DNA from: Gemmatimonadota bacterium
GTDB lineage: Bacteria > Latescibacterota > UBA2968
Length of the DNA stretch: 64,000 nt
Assembly: GCA_026705765.1 (NCBI GenBank)
Contig: JAPPAB010000099.1
Span: forward strand, 14,833 to 78,832
Direction: 5' to 3'
Below the pieces are notes generated by a model. The model was not told the DNA's origin. It ran no database searches and was given only the letters and a program-made list of their open reading frames with translations. Numbering within the stretch: the stretch's first letter is position 1; each line of letters opens with the position of its first letter. The position numbers and the translations under genes are program-made. This document shows positions 9,919 to 23,129 of this stretch, one piece after another.

Positions 9919-12810
9919 GTGAGTAAACATCCCGGAAAATCCTTCCCCATAACGCAGCATGTCACCGCGCTGATATGTTTTTTTTTGTCGGGTTTTGCCG
10001 GGCTGGTTTACGAAGTTGTCTGGATACGGCAGGCCGCGCTTTTGTTTGGGTCAACGACGTTTGCGGTGAGCGCGGTTTTGGCTGTTTTTTTTCTGGGTCT
10101 GGCCATTGGTGCGTATCTTTTCGGGCGCATTGGTCAACGGACTTCCCGACCGCTTATTCTTTTTGGATATGTCGAGATTGGTCTGGGTGTTCTGGCTCTG
10201 ATCAGTCCCTATGTTTTTGATTTTGCAGATTTTCTCTATGGCATCGCGTATAGACTGTTGAGCGATGCTCCTTTCCTGCGGTTTACTACCCGTCTTCTTC
10301 TGGTTGCGCTCGTCGTCCTGCCGCCTACTGTTCTGATGGGCGGTACGCTTCCTCTTTTTTGTCGTCAGTATTCGCGCGATAGCGGTAGAATTGCACGCGC
10401 TGTTGGTCTTCTTTACGGTGTCAATACGCTTGGGGCCGCATTGGGTTGTGCGGCTGCGGGTTTTGTTTTTTTGCCGGATCTGGGTCTGCGCGGTGCGATT
10501 TATATTGGTGTGGTGTGCAATATTTTGAGTGGTGTTGTTGTTCGCGCGCTGTCCATTGCCCGGGAGGATGTGTTTCCCGATTCGGGAGCGTCCCGTGGTG
10601 TGAGTGGCGGACTTCCGCGGAGCAGGGTTGTATTTGTTCTGTTTTTTGCGATTGGTTTTGTGGCTCTGGGCGCAGAGGTGCTGTGGGTGCGGTATCTGGG
10701 GCTTCTGATCAATAATACGGTTTATACTTATACGCTGACGCTGGGCGTTGTGCTGGTTGGGCTGGTTCTGGGGAGTGTTCTCGCTGCTCAGTTTTCGGAT
10801 AGGACGGATAGACGGGCGTATTATTTTGGCGCGTTTCAGGTTGCGACGGGTCTCATTGTGCTGGCTCTTTTGATGCTTTCGCCCGGGGCATGGCGAGGAT
10901 TGGGCAGTGATTTGTATATTTACTTTGCGGTGCTTTTGCCCCCTGCTGTGTTGAGTGGTGCGGCTTTTCCGCTTGCGATTCGGCTGGTGATTCGCAATGC
11001 GGCATATACGTCCGGGGTGGCTGGGAATCTGATTGCGGTGAATACGCTTGGGGGTATTCTCGGGTCTCTTTTGATTGGTTTTGTGGGGATTCCCTTTTTT
11101 GGTCTTGAGAAGAGTTTGTTTTTTATTACGGGTGCGAATCTCGCCATTGGCATTTCTGCGTGGTTTTTGCTGGATCAAAGATATCGCGTGTTCAAATATG
11201 CGGCTGCGCTGGTTGCTGTTCTGGTTTATCTGGGGATTCCGTATTTTTCGCAGACGCGGGTGCCTGCGGATTTTATCGGTGAGGGACGGGATCTGGTGGC
11301 GTTTCGAGAGGGTTATGGCGCGAATATGGCGGTTGTGCGGCGGGAGGATGATCTGGAGCTTGAGATCGATCGCTGGTGGCAGGGTGGGAGTAAGAAGAAT
11401 CATCAGATTATGGCGGCGCATGTGCCGATGCTTTTGCATCCGGATCCGAAACGGGTCGTTGTTGTGGGTGCTGGTACGGGGCAGACGGTTAGTCGTTTTT
11501 TGATGTATCCCATCGATTATCTGGCGTGTGTGGATATCGAGCCTGCGCTTTTTCCTTTTATTCGGGAATATTTTGAGACGGATTGGATGGGGGATTCGCG
11601 CGTGGAGATTATCGCTGAAGATGGGCGCAATTTTCTGCGTCATACTGCGGCGTCTTATGATATTATTTCGCTTGAGCTTGGCGAGGTGTCCCGTCCGGGT
11701 GTGGCGTTTTTTTATACGGTTGATTTCTATGCGCGTGCCCGAGAGCGCCTGAGGCCAGGTGGGTTTTTGGTGCAGTTTGTGCCGCTGCGCTTTCTGACGG
11801 AGGACCAGTTCCGCGGTGTTGTGCGCAGTTTTTTGACGGTTTTTCCGCAGAGTGTTTTGTGGTATAATACGTCTGAGCTTTTGCTTATTGGTGCGGTGGA
11901 TGATGTTTTTAATATTGCTGAGGGGAAATTGTTGGGTGTGGATGAGGCGGTGCAGGCGGATCTTCAATATAGCCACTGGGGCGGGGTGGCGTATTCTCTC
12001 AATCAGCCGCACGTTTTTTGGGGTGGTTATTTGATGGGGGCGGAGGGTCTGGCTTCTGCGACGGTTGAGGCAGATACGTATTGGGATGACCGACCGATTC
12101 TGGACTATGAGTCGGTTCAGAATGCGGAGAGCGATGAGCTTGCGTTTGCGGAGTTGCTGTATAAATATCGGGATTCTATTGATGTGTTGATGCCGGGTGA
12201 GGTGGATGCGCGTATTGCAGAGGTTCAAAATAAAAATTTGAGGGAGATCGCTGCGCGCGTTTTTGTTCGCGAGGCGTCGGATTTGATTCCCGCGCGAGAA
12301 CACAGACGTATTGCAACGCTTTGTGCCGAGGCGATTCGCCGGCTTCCCGAGTATGTGGATGCGCATCGCATGTTTGCGGATGCGATGATGCAACTGGGGC
12401 GTTTACAGGATGCGGAGAGACACTATGCGCGGGTTTTGGAACTCGATCCGACAGATGCACGCGCGCTGAATGGTCGCGCTGTGGCGTTTCACCGCGCGGG
12501 ACGGCTTGTGGAGGCGGTTCGTTCCTATGAGGATGCGATTCGCTACCATCCGGACAATGCGCTGTCGCAAAATGGTATTGCTATGGCGCTTCACAGGCTG
12601 GGGCGCTTTGATGAAGCGATTCAACACTACAAGGAGGCGATTCGCTTGCATCCGGATAGGCCCGATACGCATGCCGACCTGGGTACGGCGCTGGCACAGG
12701 CGGGGAGGTTGCGAGAGGCTGTTCCCTATTTGGAGAAGGCGCTCGCTCTTCGGCCGAATTTTACACGGGTGCAGCGGGTTCTTGAGCAGATACGCGAAGA
12801 ATTGAAGTGA
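9919..12810 (+). CDS. Fused MFS/spermidine synthase-like protein with C-terminal TPR repeats
   Basis: N-terminal polytopic membrane region, VVVVGAGTGQ SAM-MTase/spermine synthase motif, and 5-6 C-terminal TPR repeats. Confidence 0.7.
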   Translation: MSKHPGKSFPITQHVTALICFFLSGFAGLVYEVVWIRQAALLFGSTTFAVSAVLAVFFLGLAIGAYLFGRIGQRTSRPLILFGYVEIGLGVLALISPYVFDFADFLYGIAYRLLSDAPFLRFTTRLLLVALVVLPPTVLMGGTLPLFCRQYSRDSGRIARAVGLLYGVNTLGAALGCAAAGFVFLPDLGLRGAIYIGVVCNILSGVVVRALSIAREDVFPDSGASRGVSGGLPRSRVVFVLFFAIGFVALGAEVLWVRYLGLLINNTVYTYTLTLGVVLVGLVLGSVLAAQFSDRTDRRAYYFGAFQVATGLIVLALLMLSPGAWRGLGSDLYIYFAVLLPPAVLSGAAFPLAIRLVIRNAAYTSGVAGNLIAVNTLGGILGSLLIGFVGIPFFGLEKSLFFITGANLAIGISAWFLLDQRYRVFKYAAALVAVLVYLGIPYFSQTRVPADFIGEGRDLVAFREGYGANMAVVRREDDLELEIDRWWQGGSKKNHQIMAAHVPMLLHPDPKRVVVVGAGTGQTVSRFLMYPIDYLACVDIEPALFPFIREYFETDWMGDSRVEIIAEDGRNFLRHTAASYDIISLELGEVSRPGVAFFYTVDFYARARERLRPGGFLVQFVPLRFLTEDQFRGVVRSFLTVFPQSVLWYNTSELLLIGAVDDVFNIAEGKLLGVDEAVQADLQYSHWGGVAYSLNQPHVFWGGYLMGAEGLASATVEADTYWDDRPILDYESVQNAESDELAFAELLYKYRDSIDVLMPGEVDARIAEVQNKNLREIAARVFVREASDLIPAREHRRIATLCAEAIRRLPEYVDAHRMFADAMMQLGRLQDAERHYARVLELDPTDARALNGRAVAFHRAGRLVEAVRSYEDAIRYHPDNALSQNGIAMALHRLGRFDEAIQHYKEAIRLHPDRPDTHADLGTALAQAGRLREAVPYLEKALALRPNFTRVQRVLEQIREELK

Positions 12811-12832
12811 GGGCTAAAACAAGGAGGGTTCT

Positions 12833-13786
12833 ATGTCCAAATTTATCTGTTTTCTGTTCGTTGTTTTGGTGTTTCAGTCTGTTGATGCGCAGCAACCACA
12901 ACAGCCACAACAAAATCGACGTCAGCAACGCACAGTTACCGTGGAGCAAATTATGCAACAGGTACCCGAAGGTGTGACTTTTATTCCGGATATTGCGTAC
13001 CGCGAGGGCAACGAGGCATGGAAACTTGATCTCGCTATGCCCACAGAGCGCGGTGAGACGTCCCGTCCAGCCCTTGTGTTTATTCACGGAGGGGGATGGA
13101 GAGGTGGGGATAAACGCCGGGGAGGTTTTCTTCGTCCTACTATCAGCTATGCAGCAAAGGGCTATGTTTGTGTTACGGTGAACTATCGGATGCTCGATGA
13201 GGCACCTATTACGGCGTGTGTTGAGGATGTGAAGAATGCGGTGCGCTGGTTGCGCGCCCATGCCGAGGAGTACAATATTGATCCGGAACGGATTGGCGCG
13301 AGTGGAAATTCCGCGGGGGCGCATCTGGCTGTTATGCTGGGTGTTTGTCCGCCTTCAGCCGGTCTGGAAGGGGATGGTCCCTATCAGGAGTATTCCAGTA
13401 TGGTTCAGGCTGTTGTGGCGAGTGCTACGCCTACCGACTTTCTGTCTGCTATGAGTGACCGCCAGCGCAATCAGCAGCGAGCACGTCCGCCTCGCAAAAA
13501 CGAGCTTAGACTGGAGTCTGAAGAGGTTCGCGCTAAGACTTCTCCTGTGACTTATGCTTCGGCCAATGCACCGCCTATTTTGCTCGTTCACGCAATATCT
13601 GATCGCACGGTTGGCGTCTATCATTCGGACAAGTTGGTCAGGGCACTGCGAGAAGCCGGTGCCAAGAATGTCAGTTATATTCTTCTGGGCGATGAGAGTG
13701 GACACGGTGCTTTTCAGCGCAATATCGCGTTTACCGAGCCTGCCCGTGAAGCTTTTTTTAATCGCGTGTTAAAGCCGGGAAATTGA
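12833..13786 (+). CDS. Secreted alpha/beta-hydrolase carbohydrate esterase (BD-FAE-like)
   Basis: Signal peptide, HGGGW oxyanion motif, GNSAGAH nucleophile elbow. Confidence 0.7.
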   Translation: MSKFICFLFVVLVFQSVDAQQPQQPQQNRRQQRTVTVEQIMQQVPEGVTFIPDIAYREGNEAWKLDLAMPTERGETSRPALVFIHGGGWRGGDKRRGGFLRPTISYAAKGYVCVTVNYRMLDEAPITACVEDVKNAVRWLRAHAEEYNIDPERIGASGNSAGAHLAVMLGVCPPSAGLEGDGPYQEYSSMVQAVVASATPTDFLSAMSDRQRNQQRARPPRKNELRLESEEVRAKTSPVTYASANAPPILLVHAISDRTVGVYHSDKLVRALREAGAKNVSYILLGDESGHGAFQRNIAFTEPAREAFFNRVLKPGN

Positions 13787-13787
13787 G

Positions 13788-15104
13788 ATGAAGTCTTTGT
13801 CTGAACTTGAAGAGCGGATGGCTGAGGCGCAGCCGGGTGATGTGATTGGGCTGGCCGACGGCATGTATGATGGTGAGAGGTGCAGGCTCGCGGCAAGGGG
13901 GACCGCAGATCAGCCGATTGTTATTCGGGCGGAGGGTATGGGAAAGGCGGTTATAAAGGCGCCGTTGTTGCTGGTGGGAGATTATATCAGTCTTGTGGGG
14001 TTGCACTTTGTGGAAAAGGGGAGTGTGGAGATTCGGGGGCGGGGTTGTCGCATAAGTCGCTGTGTGATGACGGATGTGCAGGTTGGCAAGTGGATACGGG
14101 TGAGGGCAGAGAGTCGGGAAGTTGAGATTGATCGCTGCCGGTTTGAGAATAAGACCAATAATCTCGAGGAGACGCGCGGCTGCCAGTTGATGCAGATTTA
14201 CGTTCGCAATCAGGGCGAGAGGCACCTTGTTCACCACAATTATTTTGTCGATGTTCCGGATGGTAAGGAGAGCAATGGGTACGAGACGCTTCAGCTTATT
14301 ACGGAGGGGAATCCGTACGATCCAGAGCCGGGTGATTGTGAGACGGTTGTTGAGTACAATCTTTTTGTGCGTTGTAGTGGGGAGGCGGAGATTATTTCTG
14401 TGAAGTCCAATGGCAATATTCTCCGCAGGAATACGTTTCGCGATTGCCGGGGCGCGCTGGTGCTTCGGCATGGGGATGGCAATGTGGTGTCTGAGAATTT
14501 CTTTTTTGGCGAGGGCGAACGCCGGGCTGGCGGTGTGCGCTTGCAGGGGACGGATCAGGTTGTTGTGAATAATTTGTTCCATTCGCTCAATGCGTTTGGC
14601 GTGGGGATGATGGATGGGGCATCGGATGATCTCTATGTGCGGGTGGAGCGCGCGCTGATTGCGTTTAATACGTTTGTGGGGTGTAGTCCGGCGATGGATG
14701 TGGGGCTAAATCACAGCAGGTATCCCAATGGTACAGTGCCTAAAGATTGTGTGGTTGCGAATAATGCTTTTGTGAGATCCGATGGGACTGTGCGGCTGGT
14801 GCAGGACGATGAGCCAGTGAATTGGCGATGGGAGGGGAATGTGACAGATGGGGATTTGGGTATGCCCGATCGGGATGGGATAAAAACTGGGCGGGTCGAT
14901 GTGGATTATCTGCCCAATGGGGTTGTTGCACCGGGAGAGTCCAGTGGTTTGATTGGCAATGCCGAGGGGCATTATCCAGAGATAACGACGGATATTTTGG
15001 GGCATTCACGGGGCGAACAAAAGACGATTGGTTGCGTTGAGTTCCCGACGGGAACGGAGGACGGCGGTCCCTTAACTGCGGCAGATGTGGGACCAAGGTG
15101 GTAG
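13788..15104 (+). CDS. Right-handed parallel beta-helix polysaccharide lyase (PL6/chondroitinase-B-like)
   Basis: Repeated beta-helix rungs with NNxF/NNLFH motifs; start codon abuts the esterase stop. Confidence 0.5.
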   Translation: MKSLSELEERMAEAQPGDVIGLADGMYDGERCRLAARGTADQPIVIRAEGMGKAVIKAPLLLVGDYISLVGLHFVEKGSVEIRGRGCRISRCVMTDVQVGKWIRVRAESREVEIDRCRFENKTNNLEETRGCQLMQIYVRNQGERHLVHHNYFVDVPDGKESNGYETLQLITEGNPYDPEPGDCETVVEYNLFVRCSGEAEIISVKSNGNILRRNTFRDCRGALVLRHGDGNVVSENFFFGEGERRAGGVRLQGTDQVVVNNLFHSLNAFGVGMMDGASDDLYVRVERALIAFNTFVGCSPAMDVGLNHSRYPNGTVPKDCVVANNAFVRSDGTVRLVQDDEPVNWRWEGNVTDGDLGMPDRDGIKTGRVDVDYLPNGVVAPGESSGLIGNAEGHYPEITTDILGHSRGEQKTIGCVEFPTGTEDGGPLTAADVGPRW

Positions 15105-15106
15105 CA

Positions 15107-15439
15107 TCAATCAATAGAAACAACGAGGTTCAAGTTTTCTTTTCTTAGCGTGTCCTGCAAGGCAAGCTGCACCCAGAAGCTTTCTGGCTCGCCGAGTTGT
15201 CTGGCAATTTTGGCTGCCCTGCTGGGGCTTGGGATTCTTCTTTCTTTTTCTATATCACAAAGGCTTTGAGGGGAGATTCCCAAAAAATCAGCAAACGCTC
15301 GCTGGCTTTTTTCTTCTCCTGTTCGATAGCTGGCCAAGGCATTTCCAAATGTGAGACACCCAAAGTCTCTCTCCAGTTCAGAAGTTCCATATTGTTCTTT
15401 AGTAATCATGTTTATTGATCTCCTTAATTCCCAAATCAT
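15107..15439 (-). CDS. XRE-family helix-turn-helix transcriptional regulator
   Basis: HTH_3-like segment QRAFADFLGISPQSLCDIEKERRIPS. Sits at the edge of the low-GC islet, divergent from repeat copy A. Confidence 0.65.
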   Translation of the reverse strand: MIWELRRSINMITKEQYGTSELERDFGCLTFGNALASYRTGEEKSQRAFADFLGISPQSLCDIEKERRIPSPSRAAKIARQLGEPESFWVQLALQDTLRKENLNLVVSID

Positions 15440-15472
15440 ACGTCAAAATGACGTATGCAGCAAGTTCAACCT

Positions 15473-15527
15473 GCCTTGATATGTTTTGAAATGCGATTGA
15501 CAATATCGCGTTGTTGCTACATTTTTT
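15473..15527 (+). promoter_or_regulatory. Repeat copy A of a promoter/operator-like element (TTGACA 15497-15502, TACATT 15518-15523)
   Basis: gccttgatatgttttgaaatgcgATTGACAAtatcgcgttgttgcTACATT. Nearly identical to copy D and related to copies B and C. Confidence 0.5.
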
Positions 15528-15734
15528 ATCGGATAGTATGGATATAGTGAGAGATAGCGCAATACGATGATGCCCTGCATATCGCTTTGGCTTCGGTTGC
15601 AGAAGTCGATGTGTTGGTTAGCTGGAACTTCAAGCACATCGTACACTTTGACAAAATACGTCTATTCACCGCTGTGAACATTGAACTTGGCTATAAACCA
15701 TTACAGATATACTCTCCGCGTGAGGTGACTAATT

Positions 15735-15911
15735 ATGGAGACGAAAAAGACGTTTGATGCGGTTAAGATTGTGCGTCGGATTCGAGACGCGCACTATGAG
15801 CAACTCAAGGATAGAACGGTAAAAGAGCAATTGGCATTTTACCAAAGCAAGTCTCAGGCATTGCGTAACGACTTAAAAAAGAAATTGCAAGAGCATTATG
15901 ACGACGAATGA
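15735..15911 (+). CDS. Small hypothetical protein (58 aa), paralogue of the 62-aa ORF at 16943
   Basis: SD GAGGTGA 8 nt upstream of the ATG. Shares a VRxxRDxHxxQ core with the 62-aa protein. Below the 60-aa ORF-track cutoff. Confidence 0.5.
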   Translation: METKKTFDAVKIVRRIRDAHYEQLKDRTVKEQLAFYQSKSQALRNDLKKKLQEHYDDE

Positions 15912-16042
15912 TCCCATTGTTTCGGAAGTCCGAAAAGAGATGTGGCATAAATTTGGTCAAAAGGATTAGGCATAATTCAATATAGAAAAGGAGAGGAATC
16001 TCGATCTACTTTGATACCCATATTGTGGTGTGGTTATATGCT

Positions 16043-16090
16043 GGTCAAACCGAAATGCGGTTGACAAAATCGTGTCGTTACTACACTTTT
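16043..16090 (+). promoter_or_regulatory. Repeat copy B of the promoter/operator-like element (TTGACA 16061-16066, TACACT 16082-16087)
   Basis: gaaatgcgGTTGACAAaatcgtgtcgttacTACACTtttt upstream of the UPF0175 gene. Confidence 0.45.
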
Positions 16091-16132
16091 TCTTTCTAAG
16101 CGTAATTCAAATATGGATGAAACGGGGCGCGC

Positions 16133-16393
16133 ATGTTAAAAATTACATTTGAATGTCCAGATGATATTCTGCAGATCCTCAGTGAAACGCCTGAACAATT
16201 CGCCGAACAAGGCCGCATGCTCATCGCCGTCAAACTGTTTGAACTCGGACGTTTGTCATCGGGTCAGGCGGCTCGGTTTGCGGGCATGGAGCACGTTGTA
16301 TTTTTAGATGCCTTAAAATCCTACCAGGTATCTCCTCTCAATCTGACTCCAGAAGAATTGGCAAAGGATATTTCCAATGCTAGGAATCTGTAA
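16133..16393 (+). CDS. UPF0175 family protein (putative antitoxin)
   Basis: 86 aa with GRLSSGQAARFAGMEHVVFLDALKSY, matching the UPF0175 core. Classic partner of DUF3368/PIN-like proteins. Confidence 0.6.
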   Translation: MLKITFECPDDILQILSETPEQFAEQGRMLIAVKLFELGRLSSGQAARFAGMEHVVFLDALKSYQVSPLNLTPEELAKDISNARNL

Positions 16394-16467
16394 TGTCGAT
16401 GCGTTCCACAACCCTATTTCTACTGAATTGACCAACTGGCCTTGTTACATTGGATACGCCTCTTATT

Positions 16468-16956
16468 ATGAAACCAAAGGTATATATCGAAACCACCGTT
16501 ATTAGCTACTTGACAGCCCAACCTTCTCGCGATGTCGTAATTGCGGGACATCAACAGAGTACTCGAGATTGGTGGAAGAACGCAGCTGATCGGTTCGAAC
16601 TCGTAGCTTCACAACTGGTCCTTACCGAAGCCAGTGCTGGCGATCCGGAAGCTGCTCGTGCCCGCCTCGCAGCACTCAACTCACTGACGCTTCTCGACGC
16701 CACAGAGGAAGCCCTTGAATTAGCACAACAATTGGTCAACGCTGGCGTTGTGCCTGCAAAGGCAGCAGAAGACGCCGCTCATATTGCCATTGCAGTTGTC
16801 AACGGTATCGAATATTTGGTAACTTGGAATTATCGGCATATCGCCAATGCGACGATCCGATCACAAATCGAAACTGTATGTCGGAATGCGGGATTTGAAC
16901 CCGCGATCATCTGCACACCTGACGAACTCATGGAGCGTGATCATGACGACGAATGA
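16468..16956 (+). CDS. PIN-like (DUF3368/VapC-like) putative toxin
   Basis: N-terminal VYIETTVISYL, internal LTEASAGD, AAHIAIA, and C-terminal LVTWNYRHIAN resembling the VapC LxTRNxxDF motif. ATG at 16468 preferred over TTG at 16450. Confidence 0.5.
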   Translation: MKPKVYIETTVISYLTAQPSRDVVIAGHQQSTRDWWKNAADRFELVASQLVLTEASAGDPEAARARLAALNSLTLLDATEEALELAQQLVNAGVVPAKAAEDAAHIAIAVVNGIEYLVTWNYRHIANATIRSQIETVCRNAGFEPAIICTPDELMERDHDDE

Positions 16957-17131
16957 TCCCATTGTTTCGGAAGTCCGAGCAGTACGCGACAAACACGCTG
17001 CTCAATTCGGCTACGATCTCAAAGAGATATTCCGCGATATTAAGAAAAAACAAAAATCATCTGGTCGTAAATACGTGCAGTATCCTTCCCGTGCGGCTGT
17101 TGTAACAACTGTCACAACTTCAGACCAGTAG
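16943..17131 (+). CDS. Small hypothetical protein (62 aa), translationally coupled to the PIN-like gene
   Basis: ATGACGACGAATGA start/stop overlap with the upstream gene. Its first 12 codons are duplicated at 15899. Confidence 0.5.
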   Translation: MTTNDPIVSEVRAVRDKHAAQFGYDLKEIFRDIKKKQKSSGRKYVQYPSRAAVVTTVTTSDQ

Positions 17132-17147
17132 CTATAAAGGCAATATC

Positions 17148-17711
17148 ATGACAACGGTTTTTATTGGCGGTTCTCGTAGCATCACACGCTTGAACGACAC
17201 CATCAGGTCCACAGCGGATAACATCACGCGTCAGCATTTTGATATCGTTATCGGAGATGCAAATGGTGCTGATAAGGCTGTACAGAGCTATTTAGCAGAA
17301 AAAGCATATCGGAATGTTATCGTCTATTGTATGGATGATCACTGTCGGAACAACGTGGGAAGTTGGCCAGTAGAACAGATATATGCAGATAATCAGGTAA
17401 GGGACTTTGCATACTACACAACTAAGGATGCAAAGATGGCTCAAGTAGCGTCCTATGGCTTCATGATTTGGGATGGAAAGAGTAAGGGAACTTTGAACAA
17501 TATTCTCAACTTATTGCAGCTACAGAAGAATATCCTGGTTTATTTTTCGCCCGATAAGTCTTGTTATAAGCTCAAATCACTCAACGATCTTGATACACTC
17601 TTAGAAAAATGTAGCAGCGATATGATAGAAAAGTTCGAAAAGGAGTTCTCACTACTGGTCCCAGCGAGTTTAGAAGGTTCGAATTTTGAGATCGCATTTC
17701 CTGAAAGATAG
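17148..17711 (+). CDS. Stand-alone SLOG-domain protein (DprA/Smf- and LOG-like Rossmann fold)
   Basis: FIGGSRSI and VIGDANGADKAV resemble the DprA GSR...sGlA.GiD motif. MIWDGKSKGTLNNI resembles the LOG PGGxGTxxE motif. Local GC is low. Confidence 0.5.
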   Translation: MTTVFIGGSRSITRLNDTIRSTADNITRQHFDIVIGDANGADKAVQSYLAEKAYRNVIVYCMDDHCRNNVGSWPVEQIYADNQVRDFAYYTTKDAKMAQVASYGFMIWDGKSKGTLNNILNLLQLQKNILVYFSPDKSCYKLKSLNDLDTLLEKCSSDMIEKFEKEFSLLVPASLEGSNFEIAFPER

Positions 17712-17746
17712 GAACATGCCTTAATATGTTTTGAGATGTGGTTGAC

Positions 17747-17790
17747 AAAAGCGTACGTGTTAAACATTGACAAGTACGCTTTTTTGTTTT
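17747..17790 (+). terminator. Rho-independent terminator-like hairpin embedded in repeat copy C (TTGACA 17742-17747)
   Basis: AAAAGCGTAC-(17 nt loop containing TTGACAA)-GTACGCTTTT followed by TTGTTTTC. Lies 36 nt after the SLOG gene stop. Confidence 0.5.
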
Positions 17791-18112
17791 CTTTGACTTT
17801 CACAAGGTTATTGTGAAGTGGTCTATTTGCTTGGTTTTCCGATGAAGCAGTGCACAGCGCGTGAGTCCGTCTCGCAGCGGATGTTTTTATGGCATTTCAA
17901 CTGTGCAGGCCATTGTATAGCGCATTACCACAGAAACGATTTGCGCTGTGCCAGCCCCTCGGCGTTTGAGAGCGGCATTTTTTGCCTACTTTTTTTTGCT
18001 GTTGAAAAAAAGTAGGTCGCCGAAGGCATAAAAAGGAAAATATTTAAAAAGCTTTATACGTCGTTACACCACCACAAATGAATTATGCATATCCCTGAAA
18101 TAAGTATCCTCA

Positions 18113-18165
18113 AAAACCGAATTGCGGTTGACAATCTCGCGTTGTTGCTACATTGTTTATTTTTG
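18113..18165 (+). promoter_or_regulatory. Repeat copy D of the promoter/operator-like element (TTGACA 18127-18132, TACATT 18149-18154)
   Basis: gcgGTTGACAATctcgcgttgttgcTACATT. A 27-nt block is almost identical to copy A. Lies about 45 nt upstream of the enolase-superfamily start. Confidence 0.5.
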
Positions 18166-18197
18166 AGGAGTATTCCAATACGAGAAAAGGAAAATAT

Positions 18198-19406
18198 ATG
18201 AAAATTAAATCCGTCGAAGTCGTTCGCGTTGAACGGCCAGATACAAGCCAGGCCTCAACGGGGTCCGGTACGACGCTCGCTGCTTCAACAGGTGCAGCCC
18301 CGAGGACAAAGGGGTATCGAAAGGCGTGGCCCACGCAGATAGAGGTGGCAAATCCGATGTCCAGGTTCCCGCGGTTTAAGGCGCGTCGGCAGCTTTACGG
18401 TGCCAGACAGTGGCCCAGGTTCTCGGTTAAGGTGACCGCTGAAGATGGGACCTGGGGCCTCGGCACGTCGGCGGGACGCCCGGTTGCTATGGTGGTGGAA
18501 GATGCTTTCGCGCATATATTGGAAGGGGAGAGTTGCCTGGCTATTGAAAAGCTGTGGGATATGATGTTTCGCGTGTCCAAATCTTTTGGGACTGTGGGGA
18601 TTGCCTCGTTGGCGATTAGTGCTGTGGATCTGGCGCTGTGGGATCTGGCGGGGAAATTGCAGGGCAAGCCCGTTTATGAACTTCTGGGCGGTCCGGCGCG
18701 CGATCGTTTGTTTGTGTACGCGACGGGTGATGATGTGGATTGGTACAAGGAGTTGGGGTTTCGGGCGTTTAAGTTGCCCTGTCAATACGGTCCGGTTGAT
18801 GGGTTGTGGGGATTGGGAGAGAACGAGAGGCGAATAGCCGAGGTCCGCGAGTTGATCGGCGATGATTGCGATCTCATGCTGGATTGTTATATGGCTTTGG
18901 ATGTGGAATATACCGCGCGTTTGGCCAATCGCCTGCGTCCTTATAATCTGCGGTGGATGGAAGAGTGCCTGATTCCCGAGGATGTTGGGGGGCATATTGA
19001 ACTCAAGAAACGCCTGCCGTGGTTGACGCTTGCCAGTGGCGAGCATTTTTACACGCCGTATCCCTACCAGTTGATGATCGAAAATCGGTGTCTCGATATT
19101 CTCCAGCCCGATATTCAGTGGGTGGGGGGTTTGACTGCTTGTGTCAAAATTTGTAATATGGCTGCCGCTGCGGGGCTGGAGGTTTGTCTGCACGGCGGGG
19201 GACGCGATGCGTACGGTCAGCATTTGAGCTGGGCAATGCCCAATACCCCCTGGTGTGAGTATTTTATCGGTTCTGATCCGGGGGTACCACTTGAAGAAGT
19301 GGCGCAACCCGGCGCGTGCGTGCCGCACAATAGCTATCTGGCGTTTGCGCCGACAGGTCCGGGTTTTGATCTGGGGATTGAAGAGGATTGGTTGGTGCCG
19401 TTTTAA
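18198..19406 (+). CDS. Enolase-superfamily enzyme (mandelate racemase/muconate lactonizing enzyme family)
   Basis: MR/MLE N-terminal capping domain and TIM-barrel ligand region; start MKIKSVEV with SD GAAAAGGAAA. Confidence 0.65.
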
Positions 19407-19423
19407 TTTTAAAAGAGGAAAAA

Positions 19424-20257
19424 ATGGATAAGACAATTATTTCTGTGGCGGTTGTGGGGTCGGGTCCTACGAAGGATATGAATCCGGCTGTGCCTTATAC
19501 GCCAAAGGAGATTGCAGAAGCAGCTATTGAGTGCCATAAGGCGGGTGCGGCTATTACGCATATCCATGTGCGCGATCCCGAGACGGGTATTGTGTGTTCG
19601 CGGATTGAGCTTTTCAAAGAAGTGGTGGACCGGATTCGGCAAGCTTGTGATATTGCGATTAATTTGACGACGAGTGGGGGAAATATTAAAGGGGAAAATA
19701 TTATTGAGGAGCGGCTTGAGCCGGTTGCGCTGAAGCCCGAGATTTGCTCTCTGGATATCGGTTCGGTAAATTTTGGCACTCGGGTGTTTATGAATCCACC
19801 CGAATGGGGTGTTGCCGCGGCAAAGCGCATGCGCGAGCATCGCGTTAAGCCGGAGATTGAGGTTTTCGATGCCGGTCATATTCGCCAGGCGCGGTATATG
19901 ATTGCGGAGGGGTTGTTCGAAGATCCCCCGTTTGTCCAGTTGTGTATGGGCCCCGGATGGGGTATTGAAGCTACGCCTGAGAACATCGTTTTTATGAAAA
20001 ATCTCTTGCCGCCCGATGTGATCTGGTCCGCTCTGGGTGTGGGAAAAGCACAGTTGCCGATGATTACTATGGCTTTTCTCATGGGGGGGCATATACGGGT
20101 GGGTTTTGAAGATAATATTTATCTTCGGAGAGGTGTTTTGCTCAAGAGCAATGCACAGATGGTCGATCTCGCGGCGAGTCTTGTGGAGAAACTTCAGGGC
20201 GAGATTGCCACGCCAGATGATGCCCGGGAGATGCTGGGGCTTACGTATCCGGGGTGA
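19424..20257 (+). CDS. BKACE family (3-keto-5-aminohexanoate cleavage enzyme-like, DUF849)
   Basis: [45 protein letters not shown], typical of the BKACE TIM barrel. Confidence 0.65.
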
Positions 20258-20368
20258 GCAGGTTTCGCGGTGCGTTGCGTTTTTATCACTGCAATGGCGA
20301 TGGCACGCGCAGCGAGCGGATTTCTATGGCTATGGAAACGCGCGGTCCTCTGGTGGATGACCTGTGAA

Positions 20369-20998
20369 TTATTTGGGGAGGTCCGCGAGATGGGCAATAT
20401 CGTTGAGTGCCATGAAGGTGGGTTCGCCTCCGGGGTCGAGTTGAAGGTGATGAATGGAGGCCGTGTGGCACGCGAATTGGGGTTTGTGTTCGTCTTCGGG
20501 CGTGTATCCCATGATCGCTTGCAGGCAGGCGACAATGGGGCGAACGTGTGTGATGCACGCAATTTGCTGATCGGGCGCTTCGTCGACGAGTTGGCTCACG
20601 GTGTTGGCAACGCGGGTGTGCAGGTCGGCATAGGTTTCGCTGCCTGGAACGCGCGCCTCTTCGAGGGATTGTCCGCCCAAAAAGCCGGGATAATATTTTC
20701 GAACTTCTTCGCGGGTGAGTGTGGCGAGGTCGCCGCTTTCGAGTTCGCGCAGGTCATTTTCTACTTTGGGCGCGATATGGAGTATATCGCCTATCCATTC
20801 GGCTGTTTGATGGGCGCATTTTTGGGGGCTGGTGTAGAGGCCGCGAATGTCAAAGTCCCTTCTGAGGCGTTCGCCAGTGAGCAGGGCTTGTTGTTTGCCC
20901 CGGTGCGAGAGGGGCAGGTCGGCCCACCAGCCGTAGTGGTTTTCGCCATCGCGTTCTCTGGCCTGTCCAGGGCAGATTAGTATGAGGTCGGTTGGCAT
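20369..20998 (-). CDS. Histidine phosphatase (PGM-like) family protein with an atypical first catalytic motif
   Basis: LILICPGQ occupies the position of the canonical LxRHGE motif (RH replaced by CP). The rest of the fold is retained. Confidence 0.5.
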   Translation of the reverse strand: MPTDLILICPGQARERDGENHYGWWADLPLSHRGKQQALLTGERLRRDFDIRGLYTSPQKCAHQTAEWIGDILHIAPKVENDLRELESGDLATLTREEVRKYYPGFLGGQSLEEARVPGSETYADLHTRVANTVSQLVDEAPDQQIACITHVRPIVACLQAIMGYTPEDEHKPQFACHTASIHHLQLDPGGEPTFMALNDIAHLADLPK

Positions 20999-21026
20999 GT
21001 GTGTTCCTTATTTTTTGGGGGTATGT

Positions 21027-21581
21027 ATGAAGTCAATGGTTGCGGTGTTTTTTTTCACAATGGTCGCGTTTTCAGGTCGGGCAGATGCACAGTTGGATGT
21101 CAAGATCGGCGGGGGTGCGCTTCTCGATCCCACGCGCGGTGGCGGACATCTATCCATAGAGGTTCCCATTGGAGATCTGTATCCGACGTATTTGGCACCT
21201 TTTGTTGAGTTTTATCGGAAGGACGGTATTTCAGAAATTCCTGCGGGTGTTAGTCTGGTTTACAAAGCTCCTTTGTCCGATCAATACGGCACGGTGTTTT
21301 TTGGGGTTGCCGGCGGCGTGTTGCACGCTCGGGGTTTTCCCGTGATTGTCGATGTACTGATTGACGGAACGGTGCTTTACCTCGTAGATACAACGACCGG
21401 AGACTTTGTAAGAGAAACGTCAACCGAGGCGTTGATTGCCGTAGCAGGCGGCATGCGGTTTGATGTTTCCGAGGGCATAGGTGCATTTGTGCAGGGGCGC
21501 TGGTTTCGCGCTTTTGCGTCTGGTTCAACAAATAATTTTGGCATCCACGCAGGGCTGATGTTCTCTTTGGGTGAAAGATAG
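21027..21581 (+). CDS. Putative outer-membrane beta-barrel protein
   Basis: Signal peptide MKSMVAVFFFTMVAFSGRADA, alternating hydrophobic beta strands, C-terminal aromatic-rich end. Confidence 0.4.
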   Translation: MKSMVAVFFFTMVAFSGRADAQLDVKIGGGALLDPTRGGGHLSIEVPIGDLYPTYLAPFVEFYRKDGISEIPAGVSLVYKAPLSDQYGTVFFGVAGGVLHARGFPVIVDVLIDGTVLYLVDTTTGDFVRETSTEALIAVAGGMRFDVSEGIGAFVQGRWFRAFASGSTNNFGIHAGLMFSLGER

Positions 21582-21607
21582 TAGATGAATCCAAAGTTTA
21601 TATTCAG

Positions 21608-21634
21608 GCCGGGATTTATGTCCCGGCTTTTTTT
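21608..21634. terminator. Bidirectional rho-independent terminator
   Basis: GCCGGGA-tttatg-TCCCGGC followed by TTTTTTT, between convergent genes. Confidence 0.6.
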
Positions 21635-23129
21635 ATGTAGCCGATTGATGGCGCAGGAAATCGATCAATAATCGCACGCCAACGCCCGTGGCTCCGATGG
21701 GGGTGTCGGGTTTGGCGGAACTTGTCGATGCGGTGCCGGCGATGTCGAGGTGTGCCCAGGGAAAGTTCTGGACATAGGCTTCGAGGAATGCGGCGGCGGT
21801 GAGTGCGCCCGCGGGCCGACCGCCTGAGTTTTTGAGGTCGGCCACATTGCTTTTGATGCTGTTTCTGTGGTCATCCAGAATGGGAAGATGCCAGGCAATT
21901 TCACCGGTGCGATTGCCCGCTTCGTGGATTTGACCGATGAGGTCGTTGTCGTTGCCCATCAAGCCACTAACTTCGTTGCCAAGTGCGGTGACACATGCAC
22001 CGGTTAGCGTGGCCAGGTCGATGACTGCTTTTGGCTCATAGCGCGCGCTGTATGCGATGGCGTCGATGAGGGCGAGGCGGCCTTCGGCATCTGTGCTGTG
22101 GATTTCAACGGTTTTGGTGCCGAGGGGATGCAAGATGTCGCCGGGCCGATACGCGCGGCCATCGGGCATGTTTTCTGCGGCGGCAACCATGCCGATGACG
22201 CGGTGGGGCAGGTCGAGTTTTGCCACGGCTCGCATTGCGCCGATGACGGCTGCGGAGCCACTCATGTCAAATTTCATGTTCCACATGCCGTCGCCGCCTT
22301 TGAGGGATATGCCACCCGTGTCAAAGGTTATGCCTTTGCCAATGAAGATGATGGGCGCGGCATTGGGATCGGCACCCGGGTGTTCCAGGATGACAAAACG
22401 AGGCGGTCGGGCACTCCCCTGTCCCACGGCGCTGAGGGCGCCCATGCCCTCATTTGAGATGCGCTGTTCGTCAAATATTTCGCAGGAGAGGCCGGTTTCA
22501 CGGGCCATTTCCAAAGCCTGGTCGGCCAGTGCCGCCGGTGGCAAGTCGTTGCCGGGGGTGTTGCTCAGGTCGCGGGCGAAACACACGCTTTCGGCGATGA
22601 TTTGTCCGGTATTCGCGCCTTTTTCCACATCGGTTTGTTTGGTTGTGTCAAATTCGACGAGGGTAAATGTGTCGAGGTGTTTGGGATTGTCATTATTTGT
22701 TTTGTAATTGGTGAATTTGTAGTTGCCGAGAATGGCGCCTTCAACGGTGGCCTGTGCGGCGTCTGAGACATCGAGACCGCCTATGCCGCCGCCGTGGATG
22801 ATGGAGGCGAGGGTTTTTGCGCCGAGTTTGATGGCTTCTCTGGTCGCAGATGCAGATGCGAGGCGCACACGATTGGGGGTGAAGTCTTCTCGTTTGCCCA
22901 GGCCAACGAGAATGAGGCGCGCTATGCCTCGACGGGGATAGAGTACGGCGGTCTGGTTGCGTTTGCCGCTGAAGTCGCCGCCTGCGATGAGGTCGGAAAT
23001 AAGCCCGTCCAGTGCGCGATTGGCGGCACCTGTTGCGCCGCCCGGCTCTGTGACGCCTTCAAAGAGGTTGAGCACGATGGCGTCTGTCGTACTTTCGAGG
23101 ATGTTGCCGATGGTGGTGGAGATGTTCAT
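21633..23129 (-). CDS. pepA: Leucyl aminopeptidase (M17 family)
   Basis: NTDAEGRL signature within HSTDAEGRLALIDAIAY; 498 aa. Confidence 0.85.
   Translation of the reverse strand: MNISTTIGNILESTTDAIVLNLFEGVTEPGGATGAANRALDGLISDLIAGGDFSGKRNQTAVLYPRRGIARLILVGLGKREDFTPNRVRLASASATREAIKLGAKTLASIIHGGGIGGLDVSDAAQATVEGAILGNYKFTNYKTNNDNPKHLDTFTLVEFDTTKQTDVEKGANTGQIIAESVCFARDLSNTPGNDLPPAALADQALEMARETGLSCEIFDEQRISNEGMGALSAVGQGSARPPRFVILEHPGADPNAAPIIFIGKGITFDTGGISLKGGDGMWNMKFDMSGSAAVIGAMRAVAKLDLPHRVIGMVAAAENMPDGRAYRPGDILHPLGTKTVEIHSTDAEGRLALIDAIAYSARYEPKAVIDLATLTGACVTALGNEVSGLMGNDNDLIGQIHEAGNRTGEIAWHLPILDDHRNSIKSNVADLKNSGGRPAGALTAAAFLEAYVQNFPWAHLDIAGTASTSSAKPDTPIGATGVGVRLLIDFLRHQSAT

Follow-up and report, generated by a model that had tools for sequence, protein, structure and literature searches.

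The low-GC islet at positions 15105–18165 of the window, i.e. the whole 64,000-nt stretch of DNA analysed here, is probably a mosaic of small, partly decayed toxin–antitoxin cassettes rather than one system. Its last gene encodes a SLOG-fold protein and comes from a widespread two-gene module, in which it stands second and is translationally coupled to the gene of a ComF-like phosphoribosyltransferase (PRTase) that has been deleted here. By likeness to ShosTA and RqlHI/PsyrTA and from patterns of decay, the PRTase is probably a toxin and the SLOG protein its antidote, in which case the window would hold an orphan antidote within a recombination hot spot of toxin–antitoxin cassettes. The lead to follow is the PRTase–SLOG pair, whose roles are assigned by analogy, rather than the present locus.

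As originally predicted, the islet lies between two metabolic genes of the same orientation, encoding a Chondroitinase_B-type beta-helix lyase (13788–15104, + strand; Pfam, 1.1e-48) and an MR_MLE enolase-superfamily dehydratase (18199–19406, + strand, with its ATG at 18199; Pfam, 4.5e-43). Its GC content is 43.4%, compared with 51.8% for the whole window, 54.1% for the lyase gene and 55.7% for the enolase-family gene; the low GC had been recognised correctly, but the figure of 45–48% given for it was slightly too high. The islet is also, as supposed, foreign-looking variable DNA packed with conflict-type (toxin–antitoxin) genes. It currently contains an XRE-family HTH gene, a dead copy of a PIN′-58aa-62aa cassette, a UPF0175 gene without its cognate toxin, an intact PIN gene with an overlapping 62-aa gene and a 187-aa SLOG gene.

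The SLOG gene (17148–17711, + strand), identified from fold, partner linkage and dN/dS, encodes a true full-length SLOG protein, as had been proposed; its reading as a decayed dprA or LOG fragment was considered and rejected. A search with the protein returned 5062 proteins, and among the 120 matches listed none carries a precomputed Pfam domain. The partner was assessed at 78 testable loci drawn from many phyla: 64 encode a full-length, 196-aa ComF-like PRTase directly upstream of the SLOG gene, with a 4-nt overlap in 59 loci, while the other testable loci have a PRTase fragment (seven), an in-frame fusion (one, L070) or no PRTase (six). Linkage to UPF0175, PIN or 62-aa genes, as envisaged in the original prediction, was not recovered in the 76 non-sister loci, and the PRTase is the only recurring neighbour. 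Public annotations name this partner ‘ComF family’ or ‘amidophosphoribosyltransferase’. The pair occurs on 73–100 plasmid records, among which conjugative plasmids are in the majority and IncFII Klebsiella plasmids are represented. In Agrobacterium, the SLOG domain is joined to an antitoxin HTH of the dnstrm_HI1420 type (TIGR02684, 1e-23) and the protein carries the name ‘addiction module antidote protein’; plasmids of A. vitis have an intact SLOG-HTH gene next to a ComF gene that IS869 has split or that is otherwise broken. All loci were collected using the SLOG protein as query, meaning that PRTase genes without a SLOG neighbour would escape, and ascertainment therefore accounts for part of the asymmetry by which the antidote survives and the toxin decays. 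The idea that the SLOG protein belongs to a conflict module stands insofar as its family is tied to an addiction-type module, but the conserved partner in that module is the PRTase, which is absent here.

What the window retains of the PRTase is its 3′ end (AAAGGCAATATCATGA; 17135–17151, + strand), recognised by aligning the junction with that of L009, where the gene is full length, and those of L002 and L012, which keep 21-aa remnants. This stretch now serves as the ribosome-binding region and start overlap of the SLOG gene, and a search of the window for further PRTase remnants found none. Across seven sister loci (labelled Latescibacteria or Latescibacterota where an organism is given), the PRTase is full length in L009 and L010 and a 21–22-aa remnant in L002, L012 and L013; it is shortest, at about five codons, in the window, L011 and L001. 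The SLOG ORF is intact in all sisters with a dN/dS of 0.15–0.5, with or without the PRTase, and in the window, too, it is under purifying selection though the PRTase has been lost. Such selection in several PRTase-less genomes suggests that the orphan SLOG gene has a role by itself, for which the toxin–antitoxin model does not account.

In an intact pair, the PRTase would use PRPP to generate a harmful phosphoribosylated product or would drain a nucleotide pool. The SLOG protein would counter it by binding or removing the product, by binding the PRTase itself or, in variants with a C-terminal antitoxin HTH, by repressing the operon. The SLOG gene of the window may then survive as an orphan antidote, harmless and perhaps guarding against re-acquisition of the toxin.

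A close parallel for these roles is ShosTA, a type IV toxin–antitoxin and anti-phage system in which toxicity resides in the PRTase domain of ShosT and the antidote is the DprA-like ShosA (PMC11961720, PMC12961424). In both cases, the gene of a PRTase-domain protein (in ShosTA, the toxin) adjoins that of a SLOG/DprA-fold protein (the antidote), and the PRTase partner matches the PADLOC model of ShosT, at 1e-5 to 8.5e-8. However, ShosT is a 424-aa protein with an N-terminal pyrophosphatase domain, and ShosA, crystallised as a truncation spanning residues 1–313 (PMC11961720, PMC12961424), combines a SAM domain with a nine-stranded DprA Rossmann domain and ends in a disordered tail, whereas the PRTase and SLOG proteins of the present family are single-domain proteins of 196 and 187 aa. 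The ShosA HMM misses the 187-aa protein of the window (L003 scores 0.028), and the window has no PRTase whatever.

A second parallel is RqlHI/PsyrTA, where PRTase-dependent toxicity is neutralised by a SLOG-type protein encoded 3′ in a two-gene operon; the toxicity of RqlH needs its PRTase domain, yet this domain alone is non-toxic, and the neutralising RqlI is DprA/MoCo-carrier-like (PMC4670107). The PRTase partner aligns to positions 538–686 of the 689-position PsyrT model (PADLOC, 3e-21), and a C-terminal HTH is common to RqlI and the plasmid-borne SLOG-HTH variants. In contrast to the family described here, which lacks a helicase, RqlH/PsyrT, at 690 aa, is a RecQ-like helicase in which the PRTase occupies only the C-terminus, and RqlI is 400 aa long; the 187-aa protein has no PsyrA match. 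The arrangement seen in the 64 loci also resembles that of a YpsA-family branch which a computational note (PMC6459960, citing Burroughs et al. 2015) describes as strongly paired with a PRTase gene, and the GxD signature (G40-A41-D42) is invariant in the SLOG family. The 187-aa protein, however, gives no match to the Pfam YpsA (DUF1273) and DUF2493 models at E ≤ 0.1.

Alternatively, the PRTase and SLOG proteins may form a two-enzyme nucleotide-modification or DNA-handling unit instead of a toxin and its antidote, an explanation that we regard as unlikely. The PRTase could make a phosphoribosylated base that a LOG-like SLOG enzyme trims, or both could handle single-stranded DNA in the manner of ComFC and DprA; the orphan in the window would then bind or process nucleotides by itself, in line with the purifying selection on SLOG genes that lack a PRTase. 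The chemistries are complementary, with PRTases making N-glycosidic bonds and LOG-clade SLOG enzymes cutting them (PMC9503650, section 3.4.4), and the tight translational coupling and the in-frame fusion in L070 are as compatible with consecutive enzymes of a single pathway as with a toxin–antitoxin pair. Where LOG has its catalytic glutamate (PGGxGTxxE), however, the SLOG family, going by the motif, appears to have GTLNN. PRTase-fold ComFC does interact with SLOG-fold DprA in transformation (PMC9005727), and NCBI calls the partner a ‘ComF family protein’. Yet the partner has no cysteine in its first 60 residues and so lacks the four-Cys zinc finger of ComFC, it scores 36 bits against the NCBIfam comF cut-off of 233, the SLOG protein is devoid of the extra domains of DprA, and the pair is plasmid-borne and variable, outside any competence regulon. 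Further points against an enzyme pair are its variable mobile settings, which include conjugative plasmids and sites beside restriction–modification, SIR2 and TIR genes and feature no conserved metabolic neighbour, the fusion of SLOG to a type II antitoxin HTH, and the repeated loss or disruption of the PRTase gene with retention of SLOG.

Very unlikely is the view put forward in the original prediction, namely that UPF0175, PIN, 62aa and SLOG form one undescribed abortive-infection or nucleotide-signalling system under XRE control, with SLOG as ligand sensor and PIN as effector. The four genes are indeed co-directional, separated by gaps of 74, −14 and 16 nt. With a single promoter-like motif ahead of them, at 16056, and a single terminator-like hairpin behind, at ~17750, they probably share one transcript that spans this interval. 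The 62aa–SLOG junction, moreover, is common to the window and L011. But the single-system reading fails because the pieces come and go independently in the seven sister loci, each being present or absent irrespective of the others. The full gene order is confined to this genome (L090, L091 and L092 are the same sequence). At the same site, L009 has UPF0175-PRTase-SLOG, L002 has UPF0175-62aa...SLOG without PIN, L011 has a complete PIN′-58aa-62aa-SLOG and L001 has HTH_37, 58aa and SLOG. PIN and 62aa stand alone elsewhere, SLOG is partnered by the PRTase in most loci, and none of 76 non-sister loci has a PIN, 62-aa or UPF0175 homologue adjoining SLOG. Nor does the islet encode a TIR, SIR2 or cyclase, leaving a Thoeris-like signalling role for SLOG without its signal-generating enzyme. 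Taken together, these comparative data already largely refute the single-system reading.

According to the preferred mosaic reading, the site directly upstream of the enolase-family operon of this probably Latescibacterota genome would be a recombination hot spot at which small, self-contained toxin–antitoxin-type cassettes are gained, shuffled and eroded, each led by a copy of one 31-nt promoter-like element. In line with this, the contents of the seven sister loci vary between or beside the same flanking genes. One such cassette is formed by a gene for a 162-aa VapC-like PIN toxin (16468–16956, + strand; the mechanical ORF starts at TTG 16450) and the 62-aa gene (16943–17131, + strand), which, as predicted, overlaps the end of PIN by 14 nt through ATGACGACGAATGA. 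An overlapping 64-aa gene follows a PIN homologue in Electrothrix (L093) and a gammaproteobacterium (L094–L097), at 56–63% identity, and PIN and 62aa are an autonomous pair that stands alone in these organisms. The 62-aa gene is therefore the cognate small partner of PIN and probably its antitoxin; in L002, the PIN gene (16437–16926) is precisely absent and the 62-aa gene is kept at 95% identity. The pair has probably inserted at the former position of the PRTase gene. As in VapBC-type type II pairs, the PIN gene has a small overlapping partner, and toxin copies decay (PIN′ truncated, L002 PIN deleted) while small genes stay; unlike in such pairs, the partner is located 3′ of the toxin, not 5′, and has no recognisable DNA-binding domain. 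The PIN assignment itself is weak at the sequence level, with a below-threshold Pfam PIN_3 match (E = 0.044) and a poor structure model (pLDDT 64.6).

The 86-aa UPF0175-family antitoxin-type gene (16133–16393, + strand; Pfam, 3.9e-25; PADLOC PDC-S70, 4e-8) is directly 5′ of the PIN-like gene, as would be expected of a UPF0175–DUF3368 pair. The islet, however, offers it no DUF3368-type partner: PIN matches no Pfam PIN-type model beyond the marginal PIN_3 hit and has its own 62-aa partner, and the gene downstream of UPF0175 is a different one in each of the window, L002 and L009.

The hot spot is bordered on its left, on the minus strand, by the expected XRE-family HTH gene (15107–15439; Pfam HTH_3, 1.1e-9), 110 aa from its first ATG and 100 aa (15107–15409) in the public gene call. 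It matches PADLOC HTH_VI (1.6e-7) and, below the cut-off, NCBIfam HigA (9e-5), and might encode either a HigA-like antitoxin left without its toxin or a regulator acting locally. L012 has it at the same position with 98% identity, and L002 retains a 32-aa remnant.

Next to it is the dead cassette. Translation and alignment to the C-terminus of PIN identify the PIN′ pseudogene (15551–15757, + strand) as a second PIN paralogue that has lost its N-terminal ~95 codons and keeps the ~68 codons of its C-terminus; the full-length version (153 aa, L011:4191–4652) is 95% identical across the fragment. The intact 58-aa gene that follows (15735–15911, + strand) is 94.8% identical to L011:4633–4806, located there after the intact PIN′, and is the small partner of this cassette and probably its antitoxin. 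Both small ORFs of the original prediction are present, and their products of 58 and 62 aa, there called paralogues, are only 27% identical. Of another 62-aa gene, a stub of 23 codons is left (15898–15969, + strand; MTTNDPIVSEVR...), which begins within a 39-nt repeat (15895–15933 = 16940–16978, 97% identity), and at the 58aa/62aa junction of L011 a complete 62-aa gene follows the 58-aa gene. PIN′ and this stub had been overlooked earlier, as had the PRTase tail fused to the SLOG start.

The reiterated promoters of the original prediction correspond to a real repeated motif with putative promoter activity: TGCGRTTGACAANNTCGYGTYGTTRCTACA occurs at 15492, 16056 and 18123, with zero copies expected by chance, and in a diverged form at ~17737. 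The first copy (15492–15522, + strand; 31 nt, TTGACA ... TACAT) heads the decayed PIN′ cassette. The second (16056–16086, + strand) is 47 nt 5′ of the UPF0175 start and has a counterpart in L002 (2640–2670), also before UPF0175. The third (18123–18153, + strand), 45 nt 5′ of the enolase-family gene start, is the resident copy, with equivalents before this gene in L002, L009, L011 and L012; in L013, at whose locus no enolase-family gene was detected, a copy follows SLOG at the corresponding distance. Always on the + strand, the motif leads each cassette in the window, L002, L011, L012 and L013, and in L009 the motif search gave only the copy ahead of the enolase-family gene. Going by consensus, the motif may act as a promoter, even though its TTGACA–TACAT spacing of 15 nt is short for sigma-70. 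The diverged fourth copy and a hairpin share 17713–17795 (+ strand), where 17713–17753 matches 15468–15508 at 83%; the hairpin (17747–17783) overlaps the region of this copy, is followed by a T-run and is likely the terminator of the composite operon.

That these genes are the cargo of an integrated mobile element, whether prophage, ICE or integron-like array, of which the islet would be what is left, is barely credible: its low GC, the ~41-nt direct repeats at 15468 and 17713 that enclose most of it and the IS605 and IS3 transposases at the same site in L002 would fit, but neither the islet nor the 5 kb around it in the sister loci contains an integrase, recombinase or phage gene, the closest tRNA gene is ~30 kb off, the SLOG protein and PIN are essentially missing from phage collections, and the enclosing repeats are copies of the resident, putative promoter region of the enolase-family gene rather than att sites.

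Finally, a conserved non-coding element (17851–18040, + strand) is 90% identical to L002:4685–4872 and L012:4683–4872. It has no match in Rfam, ends in an A/T-rich hairpin and gives an RNA fold z-score of −2.9; in L002 and L012, it is located 5′ of the PRTase remnant instead.

The low-GC islet at 15105–18165 consists of toxin–antitoxin cassettes and an orphan SLOG gene, probably encoding an antidote, rather than of one new system. The observation behind the original prediction is confirmed, and its interpretation, i.e. that a UPF0175–PIN–small protein–SLOG operon with an XRE regulator forms a single undescribed conflict module, is partly supported. The block is indeed poor in GC relative to the whole window (51.8%) and its two flanking genes (54–56%), but its value is 43.4% and not the 45–48% first given. 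It is bounded on the left by a Chondroitinase_B-type β-helix lyase gene (13788–15104, plus strand) and on the right by an MR_MLE enolase-superfamily dehydratase gene (18199–19406, plus strand). ORF and domain searches recovered every ORF that had been listed: an XRE/HTH_3 gene on the minus strand (15107–15439), a 58-aa ORF (15735–15911), UPF0175 (16133–16393), a PIN-like ORF (16468–16956), a 62-aa ORF overlapping the stop of the latter (16943–17131) and the 187-aa SLOG ORF (17148–17711). Three relics had been overlooked, namely ~68 codons from the C-terminal end of a divergent second PIN gene (PIN′) immediately 5′ of the 58-aa gene (15551–15757), a 23-codon stub of a second 62-aa gene (15898–15969) whose start falls within a 39-nt repeat of sequence from the PIN/62-aa junction, and ~17 nt from the 3′ end of a foreign phosphoribosyltransferase (PRTase) gene, joined to the start of the 187-aa gene. 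Across 11000–22000 of the window, GC skew is +0.2 to +0.5 on the coding strand of the flanking genes and about zero in the islet, so that skew as well as GC content marks the islet as foreign.

Rather than an operon inherited as a unit, the islet is a hot spot of variable content, as illustrated by sister loci that were reached via homologues of the 187-aa protein and belong to Latescibacteria/Latescibacterota where the record names the organism. Their flanking genes share 88–93% DNA identity with those of the window, and the lyase gene, the enolase-family gene or the two together recur in five of the loci. The distance from the SLOG gene to the enolase-family gene is 117–179 nt in L001, L002, L009 and L012 and 487 nt in the window; tblastn revealed the same SLOG–enolase layout in L011. 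Upstream of SLOG, L009 carries DUF433 (minus strand), UPF0175 and a 196-aa gene; L002 has IS605 and IS3 transposases, UPF0175 with the 62-aa gene immediately behind it, and a dioxygenase; L011 has full-length PIN′ followed by the 58-aa and 62-aa genes; L001 has an HTH_37 gene and an unrelated 58-aa gene, both on the minus strand; and L012 shares the XRE gene of the window, followed by other DNA. According to DNA alignments, the PIN gene (16437–16926) is precisely missing in L002, and the PIN+62-aa segment of the window (16411–17132) stands where L009 has its 196-aa gene. No sequences other than those identical to the window (L090–L092) showed the order UPF0175–PIN–62aa–SLOG, which argues against a single system, and the supposed pairing of UPF0175 with PIN does not hold either, as UPF0175 precedes the PRTase gene in L009 and the 62-aa gene in L002. 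The PIN′ fragment, 58-aa gene and stub of the window are a decayed copy of the PIN′–58aa–62aa arrangement that is intact in L011. With both small genes present in this one older arrangement, a tandem duplication of the 58- and 62-aa genes in this genome was rejected. At L002:76–2583, the hot spot is occupied by an IS605 OrfB/TnpB-type gene (with a Cas12f-like TNB domain) and an IS3-family transposase gene, beside which lies a 32-aa XRE remnant. Labels for the organism disagree and are uncertain, with the sister loci filed under Latescibacterota and an identical PIN protein under Gemmatimonadetes in one NCBI record.

That the islet is conflict-type DNA is borne out by its toxin–antitoxin cassettes. 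The PIN-like protein has 3168 homologues of 70–100% identity across phyla, named ‘type II toxin-antitoxin system VapC family toxin’ by NCBI; a search of phage collections gave no match, and sequence and profile searches of the family against the PDB returned only noise. In Electrothrix and a gammaproteobacterium, a PIN homologue (72–75% identity) is followed by an overlapping 64-aa gene whose product is 56–63% identical to the 62-aa protein of the window, and neither UPF0175 nor SLOG genes occur near this pair. PIN and the 62-aa gene thus form an autonomous cassette. Because the small partner persists where PIN has been truncated or deleted—the window has the 58-aa gene next to a truncated PIN′, and L002 has kept the 62-aa gene but lost PIN—we infer that the 58- and 62-aa proteins are antitoxins. 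In VapBC, the antitoxin is encoded upstream and has a DNA-binding domain (AbrB, RHH, PHD or HTH), whereas the partner described here lies downstream and is 62–64 aa long, with no domain detected by Pfam, NCBIfam or PADLOC models. Of a UPF0175–DUF3368 pair, the window contains the antitoxin half (PF03683, 3.9e-25 over the full length of the protein) but not the DUF3368-type toxin half: Pfam and the sister loci revealed no such PIN toxin directly downstream of UPF0175 and co-inherited with it, and the sole PIN-type Pfam match of the PIN gene at this position is a marginal one to PIN_3.

The 187-aa protein is, as predicted, a single-domain SLOG protein without a fused effector. Its three-layer Rossmannoid fold matches solved SLOG proteins, making it a real member of this superfamily, and it represents an unannotated, sequence-distinct family. 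Pfam and NCBIfam models, including DUF1273/YpsA, DUF2493, Lysine_decarbox/LOG and DNA_processg_A, gave no match at E ≤ 0.1; PADLOC models left the protein undetected; and neither a profile of 39 SLOG homologues nor sequence searches found anything beyond noise in the PDB. Our search returned 5062 proteins of this family. The catalytic Glu of LOG sits in the PGGxGTxxE motif, in place of which the family has an invariant GTLNN. A signalling-type module, as envisaged initially, finds no support, and no ORF of the islet has a TIR or SIR2 domain. In Thoeris-type systems a TIR protein (ThsB) produces the signal, and the SLOG domain shares a polypeptide or a gene neighbourhood with the SIR2 or TM effector, in contrast to the single-domain protein found here.

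Elsewhere, the SLOG gene has a regular partner. In L009 and in the comparison loci L003, L004 and L007, it is preceded by a ~196-aa gene with the PRPP-loop motif VLLFDDLYRSGATLNA, and VLLFDDLYRSGAT contains the PRPP-loop FDD of the ComF-like PRTase family; the two genes overlap by 4 nt in L009, L003 and L004 and are separated by a 19-nt gap in L007. A scan of one genome per species yielded 80 loci, 78 of them testable, from Latescibacterota, Planctomycetota, Acidobacteriota, Nitrospirota, Chloroflexota, Desulfobacterota, Proteobacteria and others. A full-length PRTase gene lies directly upstream of SLOG in 64/78 loci, and 59 of these genes overlap the SLOG start by 4 nt; the remaining testable loci hold a PRTase fragment (7/78), an in-frame fusion (1/78) or no PRTase (6/78), three of the last six being the window's own sisters. 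The neighbourhood search proposed for the SLOG gene does uncover a conserved linkage, to the PRTase and not to PIN or UPF0175. Because all of these loci were collected with the SLOG protein as query, the pattern that ‘toxin decays, antidote stays’ is partly an ascertainment effect. All-against-all clustering of neighbours identified no third conserved component near the pair; the second-largest cluster was rejected as a component, being made up of antisense shadow ORFs. The partner, whose family comprised 1704 proteins in our search, matches the PRTase part of PsyrT in PADLOC (3e-21) and ShosT down to 8.5e-8, remains sub-threshold for Pfam Pribosyltran and PRTase_3, and is publicly named ‘ComF family protein’ or ‘amidophosphoribosyltransferase’. 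The in-frame fusion (L070:4413–5543; 376 aa), in which CACATGACA replaces the usual ATGA overlap, comes from a single Acidobacteriota MAG and could be either a true Rosetta-stone fusion or an assembly indel.

The SLOG gene of the window is the orphan half of such a ComF-like PRTase+SLOG module, from which the PRTase has been lost. Although tblastn found no PRTase remnant in the window, the junction alignment places AAAGGCAA(T/G)ATCATGA ahead of SLOG in every sister locus, and in L009 this sequence is the end of the PRTase gene (...KARS*). The PRTase is full in L009 and L010, reduced to a C-terminal remnant of 21–22 aa in L002, L012 and L013, and to ~5 codons in the window, L011 and L001; these graded remnants point to more than one deletion event. 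With 82–84% identity to the SLOG protein of L009, where a full PRTase occupies the syntenic site, and with all 30 residues invariant in the family retained, the window protein is an orthologue of the SLOG proteins in intact pairs. The SLOG ORF is intact in all sister loci at a dN/dS of 0.15–0.5 with or without the PRTase; being under purifying selection even as an orphan, the gene may have a role of its own. The idea that PIN and the 62-aa protein are a split version of the 196-aa partner was rejected, given that the partner is a PRTase with VLLFDDLYRSGATLNA and tblastn detected no PRTase similarity in the islet.

Plasmid data speak for an addiction-type module. SLOG homologues were retrieved from 100 plasmid records, 55 of them conjugative, including Klebsiella (22), Mesorhizobium (18) and Agrobacterium (12), and the PRTase is present on 73 plasmid records, where it adjoins the SLOG gene. 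In two Klebsiella pneumoniae IncFII plasmids (L099, L100), the pair lies beside repA in one and beside a type II restriction-modification system in the other. Its annotation there goes no further than ‘ComF family protein’ or ‘amidophosphoribosyltransferase’ for the first gene and ‘hypothetical protein’ for the second. Klebsiella plasmid PRTases of the family include WP_016528968.1 and WP_032635041.1, with WP_016528967.1 and WP_032635040.1 as their SLOG partners. SIR2 and HNH genes neighbour the pair on a Sinorhizobium plasmid. The Agrobacterium SLOG protein carries a C-terminal dnstrm_HI1420 antitoxin HTH (TIGR02684, 1e-23) and is named ‘addiction module antidote protein’ in RefSeq. On Agrobacterium fabrum plasmid pAtl-11c (L098:3414–4861), the SLOG–HTH gene overlaps a ComF family gene by 4 nt, and on the Agrobacterium vitis plasmids NZ_CP081842.1 and NZ_CP056045.1 the ComF-like gene is split by the IS5-like IS869 or in two pieces, beside a SLOG–HTH gene annotated as intact. 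Phages essentially lack the pair: INPHARED contains no SLOG homologue and IMG/VR two loci. In L098, SLOG–HTH has VapC/DUF433 and XRE/ImmA pairs as neighbours.

Two known systems suggest how the pair might work. ShosT is a two-domain toxin composed of a pyrophosphatase and a PRTase (PMC11961720); its PRTase domain binds PRPP and is needed for killing, and the DprA-like ShosA neutralises ShosT without binding it, via DNA and RecA (PMC11961720, PMC12961424). In RqlHI (PsyrTA), the genotoxicity of RqlH requires its C-terminal PRTase domain, which alone is insufficient, and RqlI, with DprA/MoCo-carrier homology and an HTH, interacts with RqlH and counters it (PMC4670107). As both systems join a toxic PRTase domain to a SLOG-fold antidote, we infer by analogy that the 196-aa PRTase acts as a toxin, with the 187-aa SLOG protein as its antidote. 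Neither system is identical to the pair. Similarity of the 196-aa partner to the ShosT HMM is confined to the PRTase part, and the window has no PRTase; ShosA combines SAM with a DprA-type extended Rossmann domain, whereas the 187-aa protein lacks this architecture and does not match the ShosA HMM. Likewise, PsyrT/RqlH fuses a RecQ-like helicase to the PRTase, whereas the partner aligns to positions 538–686 of the 689-position PsyrT model and a domain search found no helicase in the islet. Since LOG-clade SLOG enzymes cleave the N-glycosidic bonds that PRTases make (PMC9503650), it would be an attractive possibility that SLOG enzymatically undoes what the PRTase has produced; with GTLNN in place of the catalytic LOG motif, however, binding or sensing seems at least as likely as hydrolysis. 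In the window, SLOG would be an orphan antidote, probably co-transcribed behind UPF0175–PIN–62aa from the promoter-like motif at 16056 to a hairpin and T-run at 17747–17795. Tentatively, and with more doubt than confidence, we propose that the PRTase–SLOG pair may be an unrecognised, very widespread addiction or abortive-infection module, found in more than 10 phyla and on conjugative plasmids including clinical IncFII plasmids of Klebsiella, in which SLOG would reverse or sense the phosphoribosylation product of the PRTase; the pair would then be a minimal, ancestor-like form of ShosTA and RqlHI, and the orphan SLOG gene would act by itself in anti-addiction, giving immunity to PRTase toxins that enter the cell.

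The locus itself matters little, being one of the familiar hot spots at which toxin–antitoxin genes accrete and decay, and it illustrates how co-directional, probably co-transcribed genes of a recent patchwork can mimic a new system. The lead worth pursuing lies outside the window: the compact ComF-like PRTase+SLOG pair (196 + 187 aa, 4-nt overlap), a clean definition of which is a useful by-product of the analysis. Though widespread and plasmid-borne, it has no entry as a system in PADLOC, the suggested negative control, or in Pfam and NCBIfam; the partner is known to them only as a generic PRTase/ComF, and the computational literature touches on the pair only in passing. It would be the simplest experimental model for the neutralisation of ShosT/RqlH-type PRTase toxins by SLOG proteins, and the natural deletion series (full PRTase, 21-aa remnant, 5 codons), with SLOG still under selection, raises the question of what an antidote does after toxin loss.

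The predicted reiteration of a promoter-like motif proved correct. The motif TGCGRTTGACAANNTCGYGTYGTTRCTACA (30–31 nt) occurs in three copies (15492, 16056 and 18123; none expected by chance), with a diverged fourth at ~17737, just 3′ of the 187-aa gene. In the sister loci it heads each cassette, always on the plus strand, and one copy always precedes the enolase-family gene by ~45–75 nt; in the window, most of the islet lies between two copies of a 41-nt repeat (15468 and 17713). On the simplest reading, cassettes may swap where homologous recombination joins copies of the promoter region that belongs to the resident enolase gene. With a TTGACA–TACAT spacing of 15 nt, which is tight for a canonical sigma-70 promoter, the motif escaped the promoter scan; the hairpin at 17747–17783 escaped the terminator scan because its loop is too short for the 3–8 nt limit. 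Two scans of JGI metagenome contigs gave no match to the 31-nt motif, suggesting that it is restricted to this lineage.

A 190-nt non-coding element at 17851–18040 shares 90% identity with L002:4685–4872 and L012:4683–4872, placed differently relative to the SLOG gene; it has a good fold (z −2.9), an A/T-rich hairpin at its end and no Rfam match. The sole Rfam match over the islet, to tmRNA (18.3 bits against a gathering score of 47) at 16887–16932 on the minus strand within the PIN coding region, is almost certainly due to chance. In Neisseria gonorrhoeae, a PRTase–SLOG pair with 51% identity in the SLOG part is found in NZ_CP119142.1 (47337–48300) and NZ_CP119140.1 (47259–48289), records of 2.17 Mb filed among plasmids; it lies in the chromosome with no annotated feature beneath it and may be a pseudogene or simply unannotated. 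Finally, L007:4502–7113 contains a 5′-truncated PRTase gene, SLOG, and then genes for a TPR protein and a CAP12/Pycsar-type TIR effector (PF10137, 2.5e-34; PADLOC PDC-S35, 3.7e-37)—the only SLOG–TIR neighbourhood seen—with a group II intron reverse transcriptase gene upstream.
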